From positions 4,703 to 68,702 of the forward strand of contig CALRBF010000003.1 of NCBI GenBank assembly GCA_943354045.1: a DNA stretch of 64,000 bases. Direction: 5' to 3'. Shown piece by piece: positions 7,564 through 44,963 of the stretch. Position numbers and translations under genes: made by a program. Under the pieces are notes generated by a model that was not told where the DNA came from, ran no database searches, and saw nothing but the letters and a program-made list of their open reading frames with translations. Positions within the stretch are counted from its first letter, which is position 1. Every line of letters begins with the position of its first letter. This DNA is from Parcubacteria group bacterium. Lineage in GTDB: Bacteria; Patescibacteriota; Minisyncoccia; SW-4-49-11.

Positions 7564-8313
7564 TTATTTAAACAAAGATTTAATTTTATCCCAAAATGTG
7601 ATATTTTTTTTCAAGGCATCATTAAGATAATAACGCTTCTCTACTTTTAAATCTGACTCCCTAAGATGATATATCAATGGCTGTCCAGTTGGAATTTCTA
7701 AATCAATAATTTTTTTATCTGAAATATGTTCAATAAATTTTACTAATGCTCTTAAACTATTCCCATGTGCTGAGATAATAATTCTTTTTCCTGACAATAT
7801 AGCTGGCTTTAATTCTTGTTCCCAATAAGGGGAAACTCTATCCAAAGTATCCTTAAGAGATTCTCCAATAGGTAATTTATCCTTAGGAATACTCTTATAC
7901 CTATCATCAGAGGCTGGATATCGTGAATCATATTCTGATAATAGCGGAGGTCTAATAGCAAAAGCTCTTCTCCACACCTTTACCTGATATTCTCCAAACT
8001 CTTCTATCGCATCAGTTTTATCTTTTCCTTGTAATCCCCCATAATGTCTCTCATTAAGATGCCAATTTTTAATAACTGGTATCCATGTCATATGAGCTGA
8101 TTCTAGCGCATATTGTAATGTATCAACAGCACGATCTAGAACAGAAGTATAAGCAATATCAAACTCAAAACCATTCTGCTTTAAAGCAATTCCCAATGTT
8201 TTAGCTTCTTGTATACCTTTAGCAGATAATTCTATATCAGTCCAGCCAGTAAATTTATCTAGCTGATTCCATACACTTTCGCCATGGCGAATAAGCACCA
8301 ATGTATAGGCCAT
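7564..8313 (-). CDS. gpmA: 2,3-bisphosphoglycerate-dependent phosphoglycerate mutase
   Basis: 249 aa. LVLIRHGESVWNQLDKFTGWTD catalytic His motif plus the conserved GpmA C-terminal region. Confidence 0.85.
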   Translation of the reverse strand: MAYTLVLIRHGESVWNQLDKFTGWTDIELSAKGIQEAKTLGIALKQNGFEFDIAYTSVLDRAVDTLQYALESAHMTWIPVIKNWHLNERHYGGLQGKDKTDAIEEFGEYQVKVWRRAFAIRPPLLSEYDSRYPASDDRYKSIPKDKLPIGESLKDTLDRVSPYWEQELKPAILSGKRIIISAHGNSLRALVKFIEHISDKKIIDLEIPTGQPLIYHLRESDLKVEKRYYLNDALKKNITFWDKIKSLFK

Positions 8314-8315
8314 AT

Positions 8316-9389
8316 TTATTCTTCAATTGAGCTAGTATCAAGACTAGGAGCTTCTTCAGTTACCTCAGAAATATCTTCTTTAGCTAACACATCCGTATAT
8401 AGTTTTTCTAATGTTTCTGGATTATCTCTTAATTCTTTACGGGCTGATTCTAATCCTTGTCCAAGAGTATTTCCTTCCAAATCCTGAATATAAGTACCTT
8501 TTTTCTTTAATACCCCTACTTTGAGAGCTAAATTAATTAAATCCGTTTCCAAAGAAACACCTTCATTATACATAATATCAAATTCAGCCACCTTAAATGG
8601 AGCTGCTACTTTATTTTTTACAATTTTAGCTTTAGTTCTTGCACCAATAACCTCTTCTCCTTTTTTAATTTGAGCAATACGCTTAATTTCAATTCGAACT
8701 GAAGCATAAAACTTCAAAGCCTTTCCCCCCGGAGTTTCAACTGGACTACCATACCCCATCATACCAATTTTCATACGAGTTTGATTGGTAAATAAAATCG
8801 TGGTATTAGCTTTGGCGGAAATAGCAGTTAATTTACGTAATGCCTGTGACATAAGACGAGCCTGAATAGCCACATGAGAATCTCCCATATCACCTTCAAT
8901 TTCTGCCTTTGGTACAATAGCAGCAACTGAATCTAAGACAATAATATCTACATTACCTGATTGCACTAAAGCTTCTACTATAGATAAAGCTTCTTCTCCT
9001 GTATTAGGCTGCGAAATAAGCAAATCATCGGTATTTACTTTAAGTTTTTTTGCATATTCTGGATCAAGAGCATGCTCAGTATCAATAAATGCAGCCACGC
9101 CTCCTTCTTTTTGTGCATTCGCAATAACCTGAAGACAAATAGTTGTTTTTCCACTCGATTCAGGGCCATATATTTCAACAATTCTTCCTTGCGGGATTCC
9201 GCCAATTCCAAGTGCTCGGTCTAGCGAAATAGATCCAGTTGAATAGGCATGAATATCTACCTTTTTTACCTCACCTAGTTTCATCATGGATTCATCACCA
9301 AATTTACTTTTGATATCATCTAATACCGATTGTATTTTATCTTGTTTACTTGCTATCTTATCAATTACTTTGGATTTAGTCTTTGCCAT
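8316..9389 (-). CDS. recA: Recombinase RecA
   Basis: 357 aa. Walker A (GPESSGKTT) and RecA L1/L2 loop regions, RecA-wide conservation. Confidence 0.95.
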
Positions 9390-18998: not shown

Positions 18999-21989
18999 AT
19001 GGCTTCAATAAATAAACAATCAAATCGTCAAAGTTTTCGAGAAAAACTCCAGACTAATACAACTGCGGGATCAAATTTAATATTAATTCGAAAGAAAGAA
19101 GAGGAGCTTGCCACACAAAGAAAGGCAAACTCTCTTGGAATTGCCTATATTAATCTTAAATTTATTCCTATTAATCCTGATGCTCTTAAAATATTAACAC
19201 AAGAACAAGCCAAGAAGGCTGGAATGATTATATTTCAGCGCTCAGGAATTCATCTCAAAATTGCTATTGCAGACATTAATAATCCCCTTACCAAAACAAT
19301 TCTTCAACAATTTTATCAAAAAGAATATCAGATAGAATTATATTTGGTATCAAAATATAGTCTCGAGAAAGGATATGCTTCTTATGATTTTCTTCAAGAT
19401 AGAGGGCAAATTGTAAAAGATAGACTACTTATTCCTGAGCATATGATAAAAGATGCTCAGAGTGATATTGTGAAACTTGAAGATTTTGCTGACAAAATTA
19501 ATTCTGTAGAAATTTCAGAATTAATTCAAATGATTTGTGCGGGAGCCATATCTTCTTTTGCTAGTGATATACATATCGAACCAAAAGCATCTCTTACTCG
19601 CCTACGCTATCGTATTGATGGAGTTTTACAGGATATTTTAAATTTTGATTCTAATTTATATAAATCTCTCATATCACGTATCAAAAATCTTGCGTCTTTG
19701 GTACTCAATGTTAAAAGCACCTCACAAGATGGAAGATTTAGTATTGTAATTATTGATAAAGATGGTGTTAATAAACAAACTATTGATGTAAGAGTTTCTA
19801 TACTTCCCAGCAAAACAGGTGAAATTATTGTAATGAGATTATTGAATACTGAAATCCATAATTTGGATATTCATTCATTTGGGATTAGACCTTCTTTTTT
19901 AGATATTATTATAAGAAATCTTGAAAAATCTCAAGGAATGATTATGTTATCAGGACCAACAGGATCAGGAAAAACTACAAGCCTTTATTCTTTCCTTAAT
20001 TATATCAATAAAAGTGAAACGAATATTATTACTCTTGAAGATCCAATTGAATATCGATTACCAAATATTAATCAAACTCAAGTTGATACAAAAAAAGGCT
20101 ATACGTTTGCTAATGGCTTAAAGGCAATAGTGAGACAAGATCCAGATGTGATTATGATTGGAGAAATTAGAGATAATGATACTGCCAATATTGCGATTAA
20201 TGCCTCTATTACAGGACATCTCGTATTCTCCACTATTCACACCAATGATTCTGTAGGTATTGTGACCAGATTACAAGAATTTGATGTAGCCCCTCCTCTC
20301 ATCATATCTTCTATGAATTTATTTATTGCTCAAAGATTATTAAGGCGATTATGTGAATGTAAAGAAGAATATATTCCTTCAGAAGAGGAAATAACAAGTA
20401 TTAATCATGCTCTTGCTATTATTTCACCTAAATCCAATATCACAATACCTAAAGAAGTAACCAAATTATATAGAGCTAAGGGATGTCCCAAATGTTATGG
20501 GCTTGGATATAAAGGACGACTTGCTATTTATGAATTATTTGAAGCTCGCGATAATATTAAAGAGTTAATTAGTGATAATACTCCTGAGTTTAAAATATTT
20601 CGTAAAGCTATAGAAAATGGAATGGTAACCTTATTTCAAGATGGTATTCTTCATGCTATTGATGGGGAAACTTCATTTGAAGAAGTAGTGACTGTAGCTG
20701 GAGATACCAATTATATTGAAGAATTATATGAATCAACTCTCACATCAGCCCTATCTCGCGGAATTCATATAAAAGCGAATAGTAATCCTCCTCAAATTAG
20801 TCAATTATCTGAATCTATGTCAATTAATGATCAGTTAACTGCTATCACTACAGCCGCTCTCTCAAAAAGAGCTACCGATATTCACCTTGAGCCTGATGAA
20901 GGGAATTTAATTATACGATTTCGTATTGATGGAGTACTCTATGAAGAAGCCCGTATTCCAAAATCTCTTTATCCTCAAATTCTAACTCAAATCAAAATAT
21001 TCTCAGGATTAGCTCTTGATATCAGTAATACCATTCAGGAGGGAAGATTCACTATCTTTGCTGAAAAGAATGTTGATGTGAGGGTTTCTATTATTCCGGG
21101 AGGATATGGACAAACTATTGTACTTCGTATACTAAGATCAGATATAGCAAAACTTGGTCTCAAAGATCTTGGAATGGATGAGTATAATATTGAACTTCTC
21201 AAAGCTCAACTCAAAGCTACTACTGGACTTATATTGGTAACAGGTCCTACTAGCGCTGGAAAATCTACAACCCTGTATGCAACTCTTAATACCCTCAATC
21301 AACCTGGAGTAAAAATCATTACCATTGAAGATCCAATTGAATATAAATTGTCAGGAATTCTCCAAACGAGTATTAATGAAGAAACCGGATATAATTTCCC
21401 CAATGCTATCAGAGCTTTACTTAGACAAAACCCTAATATTGTTCTTATTGGAGAAATTAGGGACAATGAGACCGCCAAAGTAGCCATGCAAACAGCTGCA
21501 ACTGGACATCTTTTGCTATCTACTCTCCATACCAATGATGCTGCTTCTGCAATTTTGAGATTATATGATTTGGGTATTGGTCTTTCTGAAATTGCTGCTT
21601 TTGTAAATGTGACTATTGCGCAGCGAATTATTCGCAAACTTGACCCCAATACTGCTACTACTATCACATTATCTCCTGAACAAAAGGATATTATTCGATC
21701 AAAATTACCAGAACATTATCATAATCTTATTCCTGACACCATATTACAAGCTAATTCAAGCCCTGATCATCCTGATGGATATCTTGGTATTATGGCTATA
21801 TTTGAAGTGCTTGTTATTAGCCCAACTATGAAAGAAATTATTATTAGTCAAGCATCCACTGCCCGTATTAAAGATTTAGCTATTGAAGAGGGAATGACAA
21901 CCTTGGAAGTTTCTGGTATTCTAAAAGTATTAGATCATACCACCGATTTTGCTGAAATCGAAAGAGTATTAGGTGTCACAATATTATAA
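18999..21989 (+). CDS. Tandem-fused double GspE/PilB-type secretion/type IV pilus assembly ATPase
   Basis: 996 aa. Two complete ATPase modules. Walker A motifs GPTGSGKTT and GPTSAGKST. Asp boxes IMIGEIRD and VLIGEIRD. His boxes STIHTNDS and STLHTNDA. Each module has its own N1E-like domain (ASDIHIEP / ATDIHLEP). Only the first carries a tetracysteine zinc motif (CxC...CxxC). A GSPII_E N-terminal domain sits at the start. Confidence 0.85.
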   Translation: MASINKQSNRQSFREKLQTNTTAGSNLILIRKKEEELATQRKANSLGIAYINLKFIPINPDALKILTQEQAKKAGMIIFQRSGIHLKIAIADINNPLTKTILQQFYQKEYQIELYLVSKYSLEKGYASYDFLQDRGQIVKDRLLIPEHMIKDAQSDIVKLEDFADKINSVEISELIQMICAGAISSFASDIHIEPKASLTRLRYRIDGVLQDILNFDSNLYKSLISRIKNLASLVLNVKSTSQDGRFSIVIIDKDGVNKQTIDVRVSILPSKTGEIIVMRLLNTEIHNLDIHSFGIRPSFLDIIIRNLEKSQGMIMLSGPTGSGKTTSLYSFLNYINKSETNIITLEDPIEYRLPNINQTQVDTKKGYTFANGLKAIVRQDPDVIMIGEIRDNDTANIAINASITGHLVFSTIHTNDSVGIVTRLQEFDVAPPLIISSMNLFIAQRLLRRLCECKEEYIPSEEEITSINHALAIISPKSNITIPKEVTKLYRAKGCPKCYGLGYKGRLAIYELFEARDNIKELISDNTPEFKIFRKAIENGMVTLFQDGILHAIDGETSFEEVVTVAGDTNYIEELYESTLTSALSRGIHIKANSNPPQISQLSESMSINDQLTAITTAALSKRATDIHLEPDEGNLIIRFRIDGVLYEEARIPKSLYPQILTQIKIFSGLALDISNTIQEGRFTIFAEKNVDVRVSIIPGGYGQTIVLRILRSDIAKLGLKDLGMDEYNIELLKAQLKATTGLILVTGPTSAGKSTTLYATLNTLNQPGVKIITIEDPIEYKLSGILQTSINEETGYNFPNAIRALLRQNPNIVLIGEIRDNETAKVAMQTAATGHLLLSTLHTNDAASAILRLYDLGIGLSEIAAFVNVTIAQRIIRKLDPNTATTITLSPEQKDIIRSKLPEHYHNLIPDTILQANSSPDHPDGYLGIMAIFEVLVISPTMKEIIISQASTARIKDLAIEEGMTTLEVSGILKVLDHTTDFAEIERVLGVTIL

Positions 21990-30040: not shown

Positions 30041-30148
30041 GGATTTTATGTATGAAAAGACAATATAATAGATTGTCCAAAAAGTTATACAATGGTGGTT
30101 TTTGGTATTTTGTTACTGTGTGCGTAGATGATATGAAGTGTATATTTG

Positions 30149-30170
30149 TAGAGTCGGCGACCCCGCCGAC
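30149..30170. repeat. GC-rich palindrome tagagTCGGCGaccccGCCGAc inside the RAYT-like CDS (copy 1)
   Basis: 7-bp perfect stem GTCGGCG/CGCCGAC with a 4-nt loop. GC-rich in an AT-rich gene. The reading frame is maintained through it. Confidence 0.8.
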
Positions 30171-30429
30171 ATATATAGAAGATGTTTATAAATTTAAATT
30201 AAATAATATTGGCAATATTGTAGAAAGTACTTGGCTTGATATACCAAAGTATTATTCTAATATTACATTAGATAGATATGTATTGATGCCAAATCATTTT
30301 CATGGAATAATTGGTATAGACAAAAATTCATATTCTTTAGGTACTAGTAAAAAAGTTTCTTTGGGAGACATAATCTCTAGCTTTAAACAAATATCATTGA
30401 GGAATGTAAAAAAATACAATAATCCTAAT

Positions 30430-30451
30430 GTCGGCGAGGCCGCCGACTCTA
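30430..30451. repeat. Inverted copy of the same palindrome, GTCGGCGaggcCGCCGACtcta, inside the RAYT-like CDS (copy 2)
   Basis: Reverse complement of copy 1 including the tagag/ctcta flanks, differing only in the loop. Lies 260 bp downstream of copy 1. Confidence 0.8.
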
Positions 30452-30613
30452 CGAAAAATATAATGAATAAATATAATACTTTTTGGCAAAAATCTTTCTA
30501 TGATCATATCATTCGTAATAATACTGATTTACTAAGAATTCAAGAATATATTATGAATAATCCTATAAACTGGGAATGAGACGCTCTCAATCCCAATAAT
30601 CCCATACAAATAA

Positions 30614-37190: not shown

Positions 37191-38576
37191 ATGAAGAAAT
37201 GGTATAACACAATCAAAGAAATTGCCGGACCACTCGTAGTAGTGGAAAAGGTACCCGAAGTTGCATTTGAGGAAATTGTAGAAATTCGAGATGCAAAAGG
37301 AAATATTCGCCGAGGAAGAGTACTTGAGGCTGGTAAAGATACCGCCATTGTTCAACTATTTACCAATACTGAAGGACTTGATACCAAAACAGCTGAAATT
37401 GCATTTCTTGGAGAAACACTCAGATTTGGTGTTGCAGAATCAATGCTTGGAAGAGTATTCACCGGAGCTGGTGAGGTCAAAGATGGTGGACCCGAGATTA
37501 TTGCTGAAAAATATGTAGACATCAATGGCGCCCCTATCAATCCTGGACAAAGACAATTCCCTAGTGAATTTATTCAAACAGGAATTTCTACCATTGATGG
37601 ATTAAATGCTCTTGTACGAGGTCAAAAACTCCCTATATTTTCTGGAGCTGGACTACCTCATGCTGAACTTGCTGCCCAAATTGCAGAACAATCTCGTGTG
37701 GTTGAAGTAAAAAATGGTACTGATTTGGTAGAGTCAGATGAACCATTTGCTGTTATTTTTGCAGCTATGGGAGTTACTTTTGAAGAAGCACAATTCTTTA
37801 TCGATTCATTTGAAAAGACAGGAGCTATGGAGCGAGCCGCTCTCTTTATCAATACCGCCAGCGACCCTATCGTAGAGCGTATTACCCTACCAAGACTAGC
37901 ACTTACTCTGGGAGAATATCTTGCCTTTGAGAAAAATATGCATGTATTAGTTATATTAACCGATATGACCAATTATGCTGATGCCCTCCGTGAAGTATCG
38001 GCCTCCAGAAAAGAAATTCCTGGAAGAAGAGGATATCCAGGGTATCTCTATACCGATTTAGCGACTCTTTATGAAAGAGCGGGACTTATCAAGGGATCTA
38101 CTGGTTCATTGACGCAAATTCCTATACTCACTATGCCTGATGATGATAAACAACATCCAATCCCCGATCTTACAGGATATATCACAGAAGGGCAAATTAT
38201 GGTAAATAGAGAGCTTCATAATCAAGGGATTTATCCTCCAATTCAACCAATTGGATCTCTTTCTCGTATTGCAGTAAATAAAAAATATACCCGTGAAGAT
38301 TTATCTGCCGTCAAAGAGCAAATGGCCTCCTCATATGCCAAAGGAATGGAAATCAAAGAATTAGCCCTCATACTTGGTGAATCAGCCCTATCCGAGACAG
38401 ATAAAGCCTATATCCGATTTGCTGAGGCTTTTGAGACAAGATATATTACTCAGGGTCGCCGAGAGAACCGTTCTATATTAGATACGCTTGATTTATCTTG
38501 GGAATTATTATCCATTCTTCCTAAAAAAGAATTAAAGAAAATCAAGCCTGAATTTATTGAGAAATATTCCAAATAA
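37191..38576 (+). CDS. atpB: V/A-type ATPase regulatory subunit B
   Basis: 461 aa. Conserved B-subunit core with a degenerate P-loop. Confidence 0.9.
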
Positions 38577-38578
38577 AT

Positions 38579-39193
38579 ATGCCAGCAGTAAAGCCTACCA
38601 GACAAGAGGCCCTAAGACTTAAGAAGAAAATTAAAACAGCTTCCAGAGGACATAATTTGCTTACCGATAAAAGAGATGGCCTAATTCAAGAATTCCTCGC
38701 TATTATCCAAGAAGTAATAAAACTTCGAGGAGAATTAACACCAAAAATGGTAGAAGCAATACAATTATTCCGATTTGCACAAACCAAAATTTCAGAAGAA
38801 GCTATTCAAGAATTAATTCATCTCTCACAAGCCAAAACATATTTAGAATTACAGAAAAAATCCATTATGGGAGTAAAAATACCCCATATTATACCCCATA
38901 TTACTGGAGACCCTTTCCAATATGGAACCTTTGGTACCCCCAAAGATTTAGATCAATCCTTATCATTATTACAATCCATATTACCCCTCATTATACAATT
39001 AGCGGAAATAGAATTCACCGCCAGACTACTCGCCGAGGAAATTGAAATAACCCGCCGAAGAGTGAATGCGCTAGAATATGTCATAATACCCGAGATGAAG
39101 CAAAACTTGAAGTCAATTCAAAGCTCACTCGACGAACTCACCCGCCAAGAAAAAGTCACTATTATGAAAGTCAAAGAAATTTTGGGATTGTAA
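38579..39193 (+). CDS. atpD: V/A-type ATPase subunit D (central rotor stalk)
   Basis: 204 aa coiled-coil. Its last 56 nt are repeated at 41281..41336. Confidence 0.8.
   Translation: MPAVKPTRQEALRLKKKIKTASRGHNLLTDKRDGLIQEFLAIIQEVIKLRGELTPKMVEAIQLFRFAQTKISEEAIQELIHLSQAKTYLELQKKSIMGVKIPHIIPHITGDPFQYGTFGTPKDLDQSLSLLQSILPLIIQLAEIEFTARLLAEEIEITRRRVNALEYVIIPEMKQNLKSIQSSLDELTRQEKVTIMKVKEILGL
39137..39192 (+). repeat. 56-bp direct repeat, copy 1 (3' end of atpD): boundary of a 2.1 kb inserted islet
   Basis: ctcacccgccaagaaaaagtcactattatgaaagtcaaagaaattttgggattgta, identical to 41281..41336. Confidence 0.9.
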
Positions 39194-39207
39194 TTAAGTA
39201 TACTTAC

Positions 39208-40287
39208 TTAGCTCTGACTATTGCTTGAATATTTTTCCTTTACAGACTCCCACAGTTTTTGTGCAAAGGCTACTTTTTGCTCATCCTTAGCATTTTTTAT
39301 AAATGGTATTCTTTTACCTAAATAGTTATAGTTATCTAAATTATATAGGAAATGATTTATAAATTGCTCTTCAGTTGGATTAGGCGATTGTTGAATAAAC
39401 TTACTTCTTAGTGCTTTATCATTTTCGTTTTTCTCCTCTTCAATATGTTTTAGTTCTTCCATTCTATCTCTAAAACTATTCAGTACTGCATTTTCTCCAT
39501 AAATACTAGCCTCAATTTCATTCACTGCTGGTATCAGATCCTTATTTTTTTCAATCCCAGAAGTCGTGAATTCTTCATTTCCATTCAAAGCGGCTGCTAC
39601 ATTTCCCAAATATACCCTCCCCCTACCTTCTTGTGCTGGCATTACTACAAAATGGTCAAAGACCGTGCTAGTCCCATCCAAAAAATCTGACTCTCTTGGA
39701 GTATATTCTTGTATTTTACATTCAGCCATTGTCTTAATATCCTGATAACCTTCCAAAGCTTGTTTTGGAAAAGTAAAATAAAGATTATCATTAGCATCAA
39801 AATAAACTAAAGTATCCCCTGCCTGTTCTATAATTAAGAAAGTATGTCCAGGAGCCTGGATGGTAGTATGCTCAATATTATGACTTTGTAAATAAGTCGA
39901 AGCTATCAATGTCCTACCTGCACATTCCAAATGTCCCGATTGCATAGACTTAATCAATACTCCATCTTGAGGGGCATCTGGATCAAGTTCCTCTGTATCA
40001 GCCTTGCTTTGCAAAAGCTTAAATATCTCATAAGGCAAATCCTGTGCCTCTACTACCTCAAGACTTTGCTCAATTTTCTGATATCTTGGTAAAGCTTTGG
40101 TAGCCTCTATCAGTGTACCTTCAAAATCATCTAATTTAATCTCCTCACTAATTCCCAAACTCTCTAAAACGACCTTATTACCCTCCTCCACTTGCTCTGG
40201 AGTAACTTCCTGTTCTACACCTGAGCTCTCAGCCACTTCTTCAGTTTCCTCAATTTTCCTAAAATTAGCTCCATTTTCAACACCCAT
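39208..40287 (-). CDS. Hypothetical acidic protein inside the islet; possible Cys-His-Asp (transglutaminase/papain-like) core
   Basis: 359 aa. Very acidic N-terminus. Central segment SGHLECAGRTLIASTYL...GHTFLIIEQ...VYFDAND resembles the Cys...His...Asp layout of transglutaminase-like peptidases. Weak match only. Confidence 0.35.
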   Translation of the reverse strand: MGVENGANFRKIEETEEVAESSGVEQEVTPEQVEEGNKVVLESLGISEEIKLDDFEGTLIEATKALPRYQKIEQSLEVVEAQDLPYEIFKLLQSKADTEELDPDAPQDGVLIKSMQSGHLECAGRTLIASTYLQSHNIEHTTIQAPGHTFLIIEQAGDTLVYFDANDNLYFTFPKQALEGYQDIKTMAECKIQEYTPRESDFLDGTSTVFDHFVVMPAQEGRGRVYLGNVAAALNGNEEFTTSGIEKNKDLIPAVNEIEASIYGENAVLNSFRDRMEELKHIEEEKNENDKALRSKFIQQSPNPTEEQFINHFLYNLDNYNYLGKRIPFIKNAKDEQKVAFAQKLWESVKEKYSSNSQS

Positions 40288-40341
40288 AAGTTTTAGTTTA
40301 CTATATTAATAATATCATATTATGTGGGAGACTATTAAGAT

Positions 40342-41190
40342 TTAGACTTTTTTATCTTGATCTAAATAATTTTTAGACCTTTGTAATTGTGTTGCATTTT
40401 TAGGAGAAATAATACTTTTTCCTGTTTGTTTCTCTAATGTTATTCTTGCTTGTTTAGCAACATTGCCCCCTTCTTTTGCTACTTTTTTGTTTTCATTCAA
40501 TCCTTTTGGCTTTTGTTCTTTTGAAATTTCGGCAGTAGAGGCTTCGGCTAACATATTCAAAACTAGCTCAAGATTAGTCATATTATCTCTTAGATTTTGT
40601 TTTTTGAGACCTTTAAAATTTTTATATTGCCTTACTGATTTATCTGCCCAGGCTTTTGTGATTTCATCTGTTAAAATTGCATATTCTAAACCTTCTTGAA
40701 CCCCTCTTTCATCCCATTCATCAGTTAACTCTTTTCTAATCTCAATACTTTTTAATCTTTGATTAATCCAATTTGGAGAATATCCTTTCTTGAAATAAGT
40801 TTTCATTGCTCTTTCAAAAGCAAGCTCTGGATCCTCAGTCTCCTCTATTCTCTCATATCCAACCTTTGCTAACCAAAGTTTGAAAGGTTCAGCTTTTGGC
40901 GATGGAATTGATTGAATTAGTCTTAAAATATTTTCTGTGTCTAAGACATCGGTAAGGTAGCTTTTACCATCAGACGATTGCATTTTCAGTTGTCCCATAT
41001 TTTGGGACAACTGACTTCCTTCATTGTTTAACTTTGTTTTTAAAGCATTCCAATACTTTCGTGGTCTAGGACTTTCTGTTAAAATCTCAATTACATCCAC
41101 AACAGAAAAATACCAAAGCTCTTTTTCATTATCCCAAGCCCTACGAACTTGCTTTTGATTGAATATTATTATGGAATTTTCTTTTTTCAT
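40342..41190 (-). CDS. DinD-like (DNA-damage-inducible protein D) / Bro-N domain protein
   Basis: 282 aa. C-terminal segment VRQYKNFKGLKKQNLRDNMTNLELVLNMLAEAST parallels E. coli DinD (KGLKKNQKILDHMGSTELAANLFRAT). The N-terminal region is Bro-N-like. Confidence 0.6.
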   Translation of the reverse strand: MKKENSIIIFNQKQVRRAWDNEKELWYFSVVDVIEILTESPRPRKYWNALKTKLNNEGSQLSQNMGQLKMQSSDGKSYLTDVLDTENILRLIQSIPSPKAEPFKLWLAKVGYERIEETEDPELAFERAMKTYFKKGYSPNWINQRLKSIEIRKELTDEWDERGVQEGLEYAILTDEITKAWADKSVRQYKNFKGLKKQNLRDNMTNLELVLNMLAEASTAEISKEQKPKGLNENKKVAKEGGNVAKQARITLEKQTGKSIISPKNATQLQRSKNYLDQDKKV

Positions 41191-41280
41191 AATTTTTTAT
41201 TACCATCTTTGATTACTATGATACCACAATTCATGCTTCTCTTCCAATTTATGTACTAGCTGACTACACTTTGTAGTCAC

Positions 41281-41336
41281 CTCACCCGCCAAGAAAAAGT
41301 CACTATTATGAAAGTCAAAGAAATTTTGGGATTGTA
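41281..41336 (+). repeat. 56-bp direct repeat, copy 2: orphan 3' fragment of atpD (last 18 codons, ending TAG)
   Basis: Perfect identity to 39137..39192. Divergence begins 1 nt after the repeat on both sides. Confidence 0.9.
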
Positions 41337-41421
41337 GGAAAATATCTTCAATAAAAATTATAAAATTGACTCAAATACTATAATTCTTTATACTATAGTT
41401 ATAAATATATAATTCCACCCT

Positions 41422-42060
41422 ATGAATAAACAGCGTTTCGAAGCATTAACCGAAGGAATATTTGCGATTGTAATGACTTTGCTTGTGATTGAGATTAAAG
41501 TCCCTGAAATCCATCATATTGCAACTAATCTTGAGTTATGGGAGGCTATCAAAGAATTAACTCCCCTATTCTTAAGTTTTATATTGAGTTTTACGGTACT
41601 TGCAACTCTTTGGAGAGCTCATGTATTTATGATTTCCTATTATGCCAAATCAATAGATACTCATATGATAAACATAAATATTATATTCTTTATTTTGGTA
41701 GCCTTATTGCCTTTTTCAGCCCATCTATTGGGAGCATATCATTATACTCAATTTGCTATTATTTTTTATGGACTCAATATATCTCTATTGAGCTTAACCC
41801 TGTATGGTCTCAGGACATATATGCGAATTTCTGGGAATATTGATACTGAGAGATTCGATACCTCTGATCGTAAATATACTCGAATTCGTATTTTACTTCC
41901 GCTTTTATGTTCTATGCTCGCTATTCCCCTATCATTCTGGAATACTAATATTTCTATTATTATGTATACTTTTGTGGTACTATTCAATTTCTTACCAGGA
42001 GGAATTGTCTTTATTGAAAATATAGTTAATAAAATATTAGGCCGAAATATTGAGGTGTAA
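41422..42060 (+). CDS. DUF1211/TMEM175-family membrane protein (putative K+ channel)
   Basis: 212 aa. N-terminal signature RFEALTEGIFAIVMTLLVIEIKVP (RxxxFSD/GxFAI motif of TMEM175/DUF1211) and 6 predicted TM helices. Confidence 0.65.
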   Translation: MNKQRFEALTEGIFAIVMTLLVIEIKVPEIHHIATNLELWEAIKELTPLFLSFILSFTVLATLWRAHVFMISYYAKSIDTHMININIIFFILVALLPFSAHLLGAYHYTQFAIIFYGLNISLLSLTLYGLRTYMRISGNIDTERFDTSDRKYTRIRILLPLLCSMLAIPLSFWNTNISIIMYTFVVLFNFLPGGIVFIENIVNKILGRNIEV

Positions 42061-42098
42061 ATTGTGGATATGTTAATTATTGACATATTTAAAATATA

Positions 42099-42428
42099 TT
42101 GATATTATTTTATTATACAGTTATAGTTTATATAATGAATTATCTCAAACTTATTCTGAATGGATTTCTCTCAACGATTACCATAATTATAGTATTGGGA
42201 GTTTTATATTTTTTCTGGGCAACCCAATCTAATAGCTCTCTATTAAATTTGTCATTTGGGAGTTTACTTATATACAAATATCAGCCCGATCCTCCTGGAT
42301 TTGCTTTTGGGAATGGATTATTTCTCATAAGTTTATTGGGTGGTTTATTGAATGCTCTTTTCATAAAATTTCAAAAGCCCAAATCAAAAAAAGGAGAGGA
42401 GGTGAATACAAATGGACAATCTCAATAA
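42099..42428 (+). CDS. Small hypothetical membrane protein
   Basis: 109 aa, two hydrophobic helices, no recognisable family. Confidence 0.3.
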   Translation: MILFYYTVIVYIMNYLKLILNGFLSTITIIIVLGVLYFFWATQSNSSLLNLSFGSLLIYKYQPDPPGFAFGNGLFLISLLGGLLNALFIKFQKPKSKKGEEVNTNGQSQ

Positions 42429-42645
42429 CACTCAATCTACCAGCTCTGCAGTTCTCTATGTAGGTATTGCTTTGGTTTTACTTTTTGGAGTATGGGGATT
42501 TTGTATGAGTAAAGGTTATCGTGGTGGTAAAATTCTTTTTCAACCAACAAAAGGAATATATGCCATTGAATGTGTTAAGTAAAGTGATTCTATCCTAGTA
42601 TTATCTGAGGCCTCAGATATCCGACCTAATAATATTATAATCTAA

Positions 42646-43419
42646 ATGTATATATTTAAAGCTCAGCATATTTCCAAACAATTCCAAGACACTCCTATTT
42701 TACATAATATTTCTTTTGAACTTTCTAATCAAAATAATATTATTGGGTTAATTGGTCCAAATGGCTCAGGAAAAACGACATTACTCAAATGCTTATCTGG
42801 GTATTTGGAATCGACCTATTCAATATTAGAAGTATATCCTCATATATCTTTAGCTCAAAATCCTGATTTGTATCAGGAGAATATTTCTTTTGTCCCAGAT
42901 ATTGATTCTATTTCTCCATTTTTAACTGGTAGAGAATTTTTGAATCTTGTGATAGATATGCGTAAATTATATTCCTCTAAAATACAAAAAAGGCTTCATT
43001 TACTTTGTGATTATTTTGATATATCAAATGACTTGGATAGATTGATGAAGGAATATTCACATGGAATGATAAAAAAGATATCCCTTATTGCTGGATTTCT
43101 TCCTTCGGCAAAAGTCTTATTATTAGATGAGCCCTTTAATGGACTTGATCCTGAAATGATTACTTTGACCCAAAATCTCATTCGCCAATACTCAACAGGA
43201 GACAAAGCCTGTCTCTTATCTTCTCATTATCTTCAAGGGATTGAGGAGCTTTGTAGTTCAATTATTGTTTTAGATAAAGGGCATATTCACTATAAAGGTA
43301 CCGTGAATAGCTTTATTCAACAATATCAAACAAAAAATCTCGAGACCTCATGGATACAATATTTAGGAATTTCTGATGAAAAAAATGAACTTATTCAAAA
43401 AATTATTGATTGCAATTAA
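42646..43419 (+). CDS. ABC transporter ATP-binding protein
   Basis: 257 aa. Walker A GPNGSGKTT, signature/Walker B region (LLLDEPFNGLD). Confidence 0.85.
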   Translation: MYIFKAQHISKQFQDTPILHNISFELSNQNNIIGLIGPNGSGKTTLLKCLSGYLESTYSILEVYPHISLAQNPDLYQENISFVPDIDSISPFLTGREFLNLVIDMRKLYSSKIQKRLHLLCDYFDISNDLDRLMKEYSHGMIKKISLIAGFLPSAKVLLLDEPFNGLDPEMITLTQNLIRQYSTGDKACLLSSHYLQGIEELCSSIIVLDKGHIHYKGTVNSFIQQYQTKNLETSWIQYLGISDEKNELIQKIIDCN

Positions 43420-44503
43420 GTTAAATATTCTCGAGAATAAAAACTATATTCGAGAATTAGCTAAAAGTAATATTTTTGTATATATAATACCGATATTATT
43501 GATAGCTTTGTCTATTTTTTATATATTATTTTGGCAATTATTAATAGATACATACTTTGAAAATATACAACTTTCAATACAAAATATATTCAAGTTATCT
43601 ATATTAACACTCTGTATTATTTCTGTAGCACAGGTATTATTATTAGGGATATTCTATAAAGACACCCCCATATCTCCACTTGTCAGTAATTTAGATAATA
43701 AAGAAAAATATTGGTTTAATCTCATATCAATACTATATATTCAGGTTATCATAAGTAGTATTTTACTTTGTCCTATATTTTTTATTTATCATATAGTATT
43801 CTCAATACCTATTTCTCTTATATATTATATTGTACTTATTACTGCTATTCATAGTCTTAGCATACTATTATTTACCCTAATACTTAGATACCCCATTATA
43901 TTTAAAACTTTTACCATCTCTCACAAAAACACTCCCCTTTATAATGGATTATTACGTATGCCCTTTTTTGGAATTGAAATTATCTCAATACTCTTTTTAC
44001 AAATTATTCTGATTATAGTTCTCAAAACAGTATCTCTAGATTGGCTTGATTCTATATTATCTCAACTTATTATTATATTCCCCTATCTCATTATATTTTT
44101 TGCTTTACTAATTCAATCTATTTACCAGTCTTTATACCCAATTATTATACCCTACCCCAAATCAAAACAGTATTTATTACAATTACATATTAATACCCTC
44201 ATAATAATATGGATACTATTTAGTATAAGCACTTTATTCAATGCCCTAATATATGACATACACAATTATACTACATTTATAGAGGGTTTAATATTAATTA
44301 TACTAGCTTATAGCATAAGTAAGTTTTTTACTTTACTACATTCTGACCAAATTGCAATTCTTATTATGGGAATGATTTTAATTATATTAAATAATTATTT
44401 TATCCAAATTATTCCTAGTATCTGGATACGGTTAGGAATAGCTTTTACTCTTTGTGTATTTAGTACTATTGTTAATAAAAACTCAGCTTATGAGTCTCGT
44501 TAA
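43376..44503 (+). CDS. Polytopic membrane protein, probable permease partner of the upstream ABC ATPase
   Basis: 375 aa, extremely hydrophobic with ~10 predicted TM segments. Overlaps the ATPase gene end. Confidence 0.45.
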   Translation: MKKMNLFKKLLIAIKLNILENKNYIRELAKSNIFVYIIPILLIALSIFYILFWQLLIDTYFENIQLSIQNIFKLSILTLCIISVAQVLLLGIFYKDTPISPLVSNLDNKEKYWFNLISILYIQVIISSILLCPIFFIYHIVFSIPISLIYYIVLITAIHSLSILLFTLILRYPIIFKTFTISHKNTPLYNGLLRMPFFGIEIISILFLQIILIIVLKTVSLDWLDSILSQLIIIFPYLIIFFALLIQSIYQSLYPIIIPYPKSKQYLLQLHINTLIIIWILFSISTLFNALIYDIHNYTTFIEGLILIILAYSISKFFTLLHSDQIAILIMGMILIILNNYFIQIIPSIWIRLGIAFTLCVFSTIVNKNSAYESR

Positions 44504-44963
44504 TTATATACATCTCATCAAGTCAATTATATTTGCCTATCGATTAATATGGTTTATATCTATTGCCTTGATATTCTCTTCTCTGTGGATACAGAATATA
44601 TTCATTTTTAGTATTATTTCTACTTTTGGTTTATTTAGTGCTATATTTATTCATGAAATTGCTCACTTATTATTGGCATATTATTTTCATTCTCCAAAAT
44701 TAATAAAGATTCAATACCAGCACAATCATCTTAATATATCCTATCCCTTTCATCCTATTCCTAGTATTATCATTAGTTTAGCAGGACCCTTATCCAATAT
44801 CATAATTGCTATTATAGCTAGTATACTTACTCAAGATATATTTAATATTATTGTCATTATTAACATCATATTTGGAATAGGCAATTTCTTCCCACCCAGT
44901 AATGATGGCAAAGAGATATTCAAAGGATTAAAAATACTTATCCGAGATACGATATCAAAATGA
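44454..44963 (+). CDS. Site-2-protease-like (M50 family) intramembrane zinc metalloprotease, short form
   Basis: 169 aa. HExxH within a TM helix (IHEIAHLL) and NxxPxxxxDG motif (GNFFPPSNDGKE). Confidence 0.55.
   Translation: MYLVLLLIKTQLMSLVNYIHLIKSIIFAYRLIWFISIALIFSSLWIQNIFIFSIISTFGLFSAIFIHEIAHLLLAYYFHSPKLIKIQYQHNHLNISYPFHPIPSIIISLAGPLSNIIIAIIASILTQDIFNIIVIINIIFGIGNFFPPSNDGKEIFKGLKILIRDTISK

Follow-up and report, generated by a model that had tools for sequence, protein, structure and literature searches.

The 3′ end of atpD, the gene for subunit D of the V/A-type ATPase, carries a small gene islet in an uncultured freshwater Parcubacteria group bacterium of the candidate phyla radiation (CPR, or Patescibacteria). 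We analyzed a 64,000-nt stretch of its genome, referred to as the window (contig CALRBF010000003.1, positions 4,703–68,702), in which 2,088 nt with two genes lie between two copies of a 56-nt sequence, T56 (CTCACCCGCCAAGAAAAAGTCACTATTATGAAAGTCAAAGAAATTTTGGGATTGTA). Comparison with contigs from other samples shows that this is a strain-variable accessory islet, subject to presence/absence polymorphism. Relationships among the loci indicate that T56 behaves as a portable recombination site. The islet adds one more case to a pattern already described, insertion with long target duplication, and does not represent a new kind of element. What is new here is the CPR host, a cargo other than restriction-modification (RM) genes, and a module, made of a promoter-bearing arm and a gene tail, that travels between species. 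CPR genomes are tiny and, to our knowledge, little is documented on how these bacteria gain or lose accessory or defense genes. The atpD locus provides a case that can be checked at the population level, in which the points of cassette entry and exit are marked by a 56-nt gene tail.

Empty and occupied atpD sites

An earlier reading of the window (hereafter the original prediction) described a 2,088-bp islet bounded by exact 56-bp direct repeats, and a sequence search bears this out. With up to three mismatches allowed, T56 occurs exactly twice in the whole window (Table 1), compared with an expectation of zero matches in shuffled sequence. It consists of the 18 final codons of atpD and two bases of the stop codon, which reads TAA at the left copy and TAG at the right. 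The bases bordering the two copies differ on the left side (A versus C) and on the right side (A versus G); identity ends at both edges, and the repeat is not part of a larger segmental duplication, which would have argued against the original prediction. The insertion leaves the frame and protein of atpD intact. The right copy is an orphan 18-codon atpD tail, located about 85 nt 5′ of a TMEM175-family gene. The G+C content of the islet is similar to that of its flanks, and no Rfam match was found between positions 38000 and 42500.

For the strain comparison, contigs from many samples were retrieved by exact lookup of the AtpD protein; loci used for comparison are numbered from L001. In records of metagenome-assembled genomes (MAGs), the near-identical loci are titled Candidatus Paceibacteria or Parcubacteria, and many come from freshwater. 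At L001, L002, L004, L007 and the MAG locus L011 the site is empty, consisting exactly of the left flank, one T56 and the right flank, with 85 nt from atpD to the TMEM175 gene. The original prediction had anticipated this arrangement, and the comparison of occupied and empty sites likewise agrees with its att-like architecture, in which a single crossover restores the gene end. Six loci are occupied (L003, L005, L006 and L008–L010), and their 204-aa AtpD is 100% identical to that of the empty-site strains. The islets of L008 and L009 are identical to that of the window, whereas the same islet in L010 is 95% identical and has T56 copies that differ from each other at one base. In L003 the repeat has diverged and the Bro-N gene, one of the two islet genes, is paired with a gene for a 956-aa protein. 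In L005 and L006 the Bro-N gene is accompanied by a gene for a 360-aa or a 1060-aa protein, the right arm is a different sequence of 115 nt, and there is no second T56. The claim of a repeat-bounded insertion holds for window-type strains and fails for L005 and L006, which have no right repeat, and for three loci in sister species (L013, L017 and L021), which have no duplication.

The 956-aa and 1060-aa proteins have only their first ~36 residues in common with the 359-aa protein of the window, so alleles have been exchanged, with the break lying within the part of the gene that encodes the N terminus. Their genes (L003:10671–13541 and L006:10671–13853) are alleles of window 39208–40287 and gave no domain matches. 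The leader common to the alternative alleles consists of about 36 acidic residues (MGIENxxNFRKVEE...TPEQ), and this combination of a constant leader and exchangeable bodies recalls polymorphic effector loci. The 115-nt sequence that stands in place of the arm and T56 in L005 (12640–12770) and L006 (14955–15084) is unrelated to them and keeps a promoter-like TTGAAA, 18 nt, TATAAT. Both loci are without 23 nt of the TMEM175 upstream region. In a search for the source of this arm, no match was found among the fetched loci.

Within the window, the islet is organized as a single leftward transcription unit: the arm, the gene for a 282-aa Bro-N protein (the PADLOC candidate PDC-S13), and then the gene for the acidic 359-aa protein, which is predicted to have a transglutaminase-like fold. 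The arm contains a predicted promoter (TTGGAA, 18 nt, TG-TATCAT, at 41247..41218, leftward) and an 8-bp palindrome (41261–41268 and 41272–41279) that ends one base short of the right T56. The TMEM175 gene has its own promoter-like site (41366–41394, promoter scan) and directly follows atpD in the empty-site contigs. The junction of an excised circle is predicted to read ...TGTAGTCAC + T56 + ATTAAGTATAC..., and that of the empty site is atpD + T56 + GGAAAATATC. Where the arm joins T56, there is microhomology of 2–4 nt, TCAC/CTCAC in the window and AA in L003 and L022.

Table 1. Features of the islet and its borders, in window coordinates
Feature	Position	Strand	Evidence or remark
atpD, V/A-type ATPase subunit D, target gene	38579..39193	+	Pfam ATP-synt_D E=4.6e-52; 204 aa
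T56 left copy, last 56 nt of atpD, attL position	39137..39192	+	exact repeat
359-aa acidic protein, predicted transglutaminase-like fold, Cys122-His148-Asp164 triad	39208..40287	-	
282-aa Bro-N protein, PADLOC candidate PDC-S13 / phrog_15286	40342..41190	-	Pfam Bro-N E=3.7e-10
Conserved cassette arm, leftward promoter and 8-bp palindrome	41200..41280	-	promoter scan, hairpin search
T56 right copy, orphan atpD tail, attR position	41281..41336	+	followed by the sequence found 3′ of atpD in empty sites
TMEM175-family channel gene, right neighbor outside the islet	41422..42060	+	Pfam TMEM175 E=3e-19

The atpD tail as a recombination site

The interval from atpD to a P-type ATPase gene was compared with that of sister species, in which AtpD is about 90% identical. 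T56 differs from its counterparts by 2–5 mismatches, while the rest of atpD has 8–18 per 56-nt bin, and the shift occurs about 6 nt before T56. In the island-free lineages L012 and L019, used as controls, 9–12 mismatches fall within T56, indicating that general constraint does not explain its conservation. Downstream of atpD, L013 and L021 carry the acidic gene alone and L017 carries the acidic gene with Bro-N, in each case with no duplication. Identity to the window is 88–94% for the acidic and Bro-N genes in L013 and L017 and about 80% for core genes. Together with the deficit of mismatches in T56, this difference indicates that T56 and the cassette have crossed species boundaries. In L021, the acidic gene has diverged to the same extent as the core genes (79% identity).

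The locus L022 contains a second atpD tail of 58 nt, 91% identical to its own. This tail is preceded by the ~80-nt arm of the window, and the gene behind the arm encodes a RadC-Dam fusion instead of Bro-N; homology with the window spans T56 and extends exactly up to the start codon. The window arm is also found 5′ of the Bro-N gene in L010 and in L003, where the partner gene is different. One arm/T56 junction is associated with different cargos, a type II RM system in L022 and Bro-N with the 956-aa protein in L003. To the right of the second T56 of L022 lies a decayed older islet with a 33-nt Bro-N fragment, pointing to tandem accretion. By eye, the start of this remnant resembles a left end of the L003 type.

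The two T56 copies of L003 record where an exchange took place. With the empty-site allele as reference, the left copy matches the host at position 24 but not at 36 and 42; in the right copy, positions 7 and 24 are non-host, whereas 36 and 42 are host-type. These reciprocal polymorphisms place one crossover between positions 24 and 36. Unlike L003, L006 already has the non-host base at position 24 of its T56.

The stretch that separates the V-ATPase operon from the P-type ATPase gene is a recombination hot spot, where ordinary homologous and illegitimate recombination also occur. In L016 it contains a type I RM system together with DUF3800 and genes for KilA-N and an Xre-SocA antitoxin-like protein; in L015, genes for MazF-like, T5orf172-like and lectin-like proteins (assigned by eye from the translations); and in L022, a type II RM system that includes an AlwI-family endonuclease alongside an N6_N4 methylase and the RadC-Dam fusion. 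The atpD gene of L012 (8001–8615) changes lineage internally: its 5′ half is window-like, with 1–4 mismatches per 56 nt, and its 3′ half is foreign, with 7–13. L022 is 92–93% identical to the window in atpA and atpB and 80% identical in atpD. These mosaic core genes indicate breakpoints of homologous exchange inside the V-ATPase operon. The alternative cargos at the site are PDC-S13 with the transglutaminase-fold protein, PDC-S13 with a protein of ~1000 aa, and type II RM; in neighboring species, the same interval holds type I RM and toxin-antitoxin-like genes.

No integrase or transposase gene was found in any islet variant, in 24 related atpD loci or in the 64-kb window, in agreement with the integrase-less islet of the original prediction. 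Genes for RecA (8316–9389) and for a T2SSE-family ATPase of the type IV pilus/secretion type (18999–21989) do lie in the window. The original prediction had also suggested a search for the 56-mer in phages; in exact scans for free or phage-borne copies, both the 56-mer and the arm were absent from IMG/VR, and the arm was absent from the JGI metagenome contigs. A Logan contig of 2,148 nt (L160) consists of the islet with 30 nt of T56 at each end. It was considered as a circular form of the islet and rejected, as the k=31 graph breaks inside T56.

Proposed mechanism of insertion and its alternatives

RM units inserted with target duplications of 46 to >400 bp, without mobility genes and mostly in naturally competent species, form a described class termed "insertion with long target duplication" (Nobusato et al., 2000, as cited in Furuta, Abe and Kobayashi, 2010; PMC2853133), for which a cycle of insertion, amplification and release was proposed. 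Furuta et al. defined it by an insert of <20 kb, a duplication of >30 bp, no other mobile-element genes, a related empty allele, and homologues of R and M genes. The islet has an insert of 2,088 nt, a 56-nt duplication, no mobility genes and empty alleles; it differs in its CPR host and in its cargo, which is Bro-N and the transglutaminase-fold protein in place of R and M genes. The cassette of L022, at the same site, has every feature of the class, with R and M genes in the form of two methyltransferases and an AlwI-family endonuclease. Some of the published duplications overlap the 3′ end of a gene, as that of the islet does (PMC2853133). In contrast, a duplicated segment and arm common to different cargos and species is a feature absent from the published descriptions that we compared. 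Two points of the original prediction need revision in this light. From the lack of an integrase it proposed a decayed element, one mobilized in trans or a different insertion mechanism; integrase-less insertions with target duplications of >30 bp are an established class for RM units (PMC2853133). Integration at the 3′ end of protein-coding genes was considered rare, whereas in Streptococcus the 3′ ends of fda, rpsI and rpmG are used by integrative and conjugative elements (ICEs), integrative and mobilizable elements (IMEs) as well as cis-mobilizable elements (CIMEs; PMC7563491).

The same architecture is found elsewhere. In L032, from an unrelated bacterium, the 3′ part of a Glycos_transf_N-family gene is present in three ~220-nt copies around Bro-N/RM cassettes. 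This region (L032:8500–17100, on a 1.58-Mb contig) contains two tandem Bro-N genes, 97% identical, and a RadC-Dam/AlwI/methyltransferase system; the Bro-N genes and the RM system each lie behind the same promoter module and are separated by the ~220-nt copies, with the glycosyltransferase gene convergent. In L046, a ~130-nt duplication (7650–7793 and 8858–8998, ~90% identical) flanks a Bro-N gene that is 88% identical to that of the window; the duplicated segment is the 3′ end of an upstream 189-aa gene and ends just past its stop codon. A flanking repeat of any kind is present at only about 10 of 58 Bro-N loci, among which L032 and L046 are convincing and L121 has only a repeated intergenic hairpin. 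We rejected flanking repeats as a general rule for Bro-N genes; the pattern recurs without being the rule.

We suggest the following sequence of events. A T56 copy beside the cassette arm would recombine with T56 at the end of the chromosomal atpD in one reciprocal crossover, a Campbell-type insertion. This would rebuild the end of atpD, and the displaced tail would land on the far side of the islet. The crossover could be made by host RecA on 56 nt of homology after DNA uptake, if the cells are competent. Recombination between the two T56 copies would delete the islet cleanly and give rise to the empty alleles, and flanking homology would spread the islet within the species. Host RecA-driven recombination at T56, with no recombinase encoded by the islet, is the best explanation we have and one that we favor tentatively. 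It is preferred because no recombinase was found, the flanks are mosaic and L006 differs from L003 at position 24, and because repeats of ~220 nt (L032) and ~130 nt (L046) show the same architecture in unrelated bacteria. The site-specific integration of the original prediction stands in its geometry; nothing points to an integrase as its maker, and no integrase-bearing relative was found at this site among the 24 related loci.

Several points weigh against RecA. The palindrome one base from T56 and the identical junctions for different cargos also fit a dedicated recombinase site, and RecA would be limited to 56 nt of homology. The initial sharing of T56 between species that are 80% identical is left unexplained by this reading. 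The islets of L005 and L006, whose right arm differs and which lack a second T56, and the acidic gene that follows atpD without duplication in L013, L017 and L021 indicate that some gains or losses bypass T56. No free or circular form of the islet was seen in IMG/VR, JGI or Logan contigs, and natural competence of the organism is assumed. With regard to the cargo, a defense role for PDC-S13 has been predicted from the way the gene is embedded (Payne et al., 2024, bioRxiv 10.1101/2024.01.29.577857); no experimental test was found, and a text search of the literature for the name PDC-S13 gave nothing. The locus could help decide whether RecA or a recombinase drives insertion with long target duplication.

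A possible but doubtful alternative is that T56 and the palindromic arm form the att site of a tyrosine or serine integrase encoded on a full-length element, phage or plasmid. The islet would then be a decayed or minimal element, comparable to a CIME, integrated and excised in trans or in cis. The attL/attR geometry with a restored gene end, the conservation of the element-side arm across cargos with its 8-bp palindrome one base from the core, the tandem accretion in L022, and a T56 kept across species in which the remainder of atpD is 80% identical are all consistent with such a site. The CIMEs at fda, rpsI and rpmG provide a precedent: like them, the islet carries cargo without an integrase or other recombination or transfer genes, is bounded at a housekeeping gene's 3′ end by direct repeats that resemble att sites, and lies in the size range of 1.2–13 kb; tandem arrays also occur, here in L022 (PMC7563491). 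Unlike the CIMEs, it has no integrase-bearing counterpart with a shared att at atpD among the 24 related loci, a search that was not exhaustive. Its flanking repeats and single-copy empty site are those of an integrase-mediated element (prophage, genomic island, ICE or IME), but no element-encoded tyrosine or serine recombinase was found, alternative cargos and window included. The absence of the arm and the 56-mer from IMG/VR, and of the arm from JGI metagenome contigs, also argues against an integrase. So do the ~130-nt and ~220-nt duplications around analogous Bro-N/RM cassettes in other phyla, which exceed the usual site-specific repeats and are more variable (the cut-off of Furuta et al. 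is 30 bp), and the difference between L006 and L003 at position 24, which would mean different crossover points if the cassettes are the same.

It is unlikely, in our assessment, that the acidic and Bro-N genes are old residents of the locus and that the second T56 is the leading end of an incoming fragment of atpD tail and TMEM175 gene. The fragment would have been joined by homology-facilitated illegitimate recombination (HFIR), and the empty alleles would be later deletions between the T56 copies. Long residence is consistent with the sister species in which atpD is followed by the acidic gene, with or without Bro-N, and by neither a duplication nor TMEM175, and with the core-like divergence (79%) of the acidic gene in L021. 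The 2–4 nt of microhomology at the junction fit HFIR, which is documented in competent bacteria (PMC3240628), and the polymorphism of a neighboring ABC-transporter block is a plain deletion. However, L022 has the same arm/T56 junction on an unrelated RM cassette, with other sequence to the right of T56. The cargo of L013 and L017, at 88–94% identity compared with ~80% for the core, indicates interspecies transfer rather than residence, and the reciprocal polymorphism of L003 implies a crossover inside T56.

There is also a small chance that T56 and the palindromic promoter arm are the attachment site of an unrecognized family of recombinase-less defense cassettes in the CPR, with a recombinase located elsewhere or of a new type. 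If true, defense cassettes would carry RM, PDC-S13 and effector-like genes between species by targeting the 3′ tail of a housekeeping gene, and the Bro-N/RM cassettes of L032 and L046 would be products of the same mechanism.

An assembly artefact, in which a de Bruijn path would wrongly pass through an unconnected element with a k-mer in common with atpD, is highly improbable: the repeat length of 56 is close to the common assembler maximum k of 55 and Logan k=31 contigs break inside T56, but identical junctions were obtained from independent samples and different assemblers, the T56 copies of L010 (contig k119_96246, a name that suggests a k-mer longer than the repeat) and of L003 are non-identical and each junction is uniquely supported, and L022, another MAG, has the same layout. 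Two further candidates were rejected. An integron gene cassette does not fit, with T56 fold z values of -0.4 and +0.6, no attC-type hairpin and no integrase; nor does a transposon or insertion sequence, with no terminal inverted repeats at the islet ends, a 56-nt duplication and no transposase.

Cargo proteins and neighboring polymorphisms

The original prediction assigned the two islet genes to a Bro-N-like and a possible Cys-His-Asp protein, and the Pfam match of the first and the invariant triad and fold model of the second uphold both calls. Judged by context alone, an anti-phage or accessory module is the likeliest identity of the cargo. The 282-aa protein, in which the Bro-N domain is N-terminal, matches phrog_15286 (E=1.3e-122) and the PADLOC profile PDLC04920 for PDC-S13 (E=2.8e-135, residues 1–275 of the 286-position profile). 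The Bro-N family is very large: at least 8000 candidates were scored, all of them matching, and homologues up to 79–84% identical are found in MAGs labelled as other phyla. Homologues occur in or beside restriction loci of types II, III and IV: L032 has one before the same RadC-Dam/AlwI/methyltransferase system, L039 has one within a type III RM operon, and in L033 one adjoins GmrSD. Others lie with RhuM between ilvH and ilvC (L029), stand alone (L035) or are carried on viral contigs. The match to the hidden Markov model is full-length, and a location of homologues in or beside restriction systems is how PDCs were defined; the PDC-S13 of the window is outside an RM system and is partnered with a CPR-specific protein. 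The locus supplies a natural partner gene and a context for this predicted defense candidate. The AlphaFold2 model of the protein is poor, with a predicted local distance difference test score (pLDDT) of 69, falling below 50 for residues 112–168, and no sequence relatives were found in the PDB.

The family of the 359-aa protein appears to be restricted to CPR/Patescibacteria; it has 90 detectable homologues, and the few named ones are all from Patescibacteria/Parcubacteria. C122, H148 and D164 are invariant in the family. The structural model is confident (pLDDT 88), its best structural neighbors are transglutaminase-fold Cys-His-Asp proteins, and the protein is predicted to hold its Cys-His-Asp triad on a papain/transglutaminase core fold. 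In predicted fold and invariant triad it resembles LapG, TglA, arylamine N-acetyltransferases and the menin core. It differs from transglutaminase-like and papain-like enzymes in its large helical C-terminal half and its acidic, disordered N-terminus, and no Pfam family was matched above noise, Transglut_core-type profiles included. Homologues with ~50% identity (L025–L028) are found in other variable contexts, beside type I RM, next to RIO1-type kinase genes and near a tyrosine recombinase, and some members of the family reach 560–630 aa.

Two other polymorphisms lie near the islet. The block at window 42069–44872 encodes small membrane proteins, an ABC ATPase and a 375-aa membrane protein, and is missing in L002, L004, L007 and L011. 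Strains without it retain only the 3′ tail of its last gene; the block has no long flanking repeat, pointing to a plain deletion. Between the gene for the CCA-adding enzyme and the V-ATPase operon, a 175-aa open reading frame without a domain match (30052–30579) is present in the window, L008 and L044 and absent from L001–L007, which makes it another small indel of this neighborhood.

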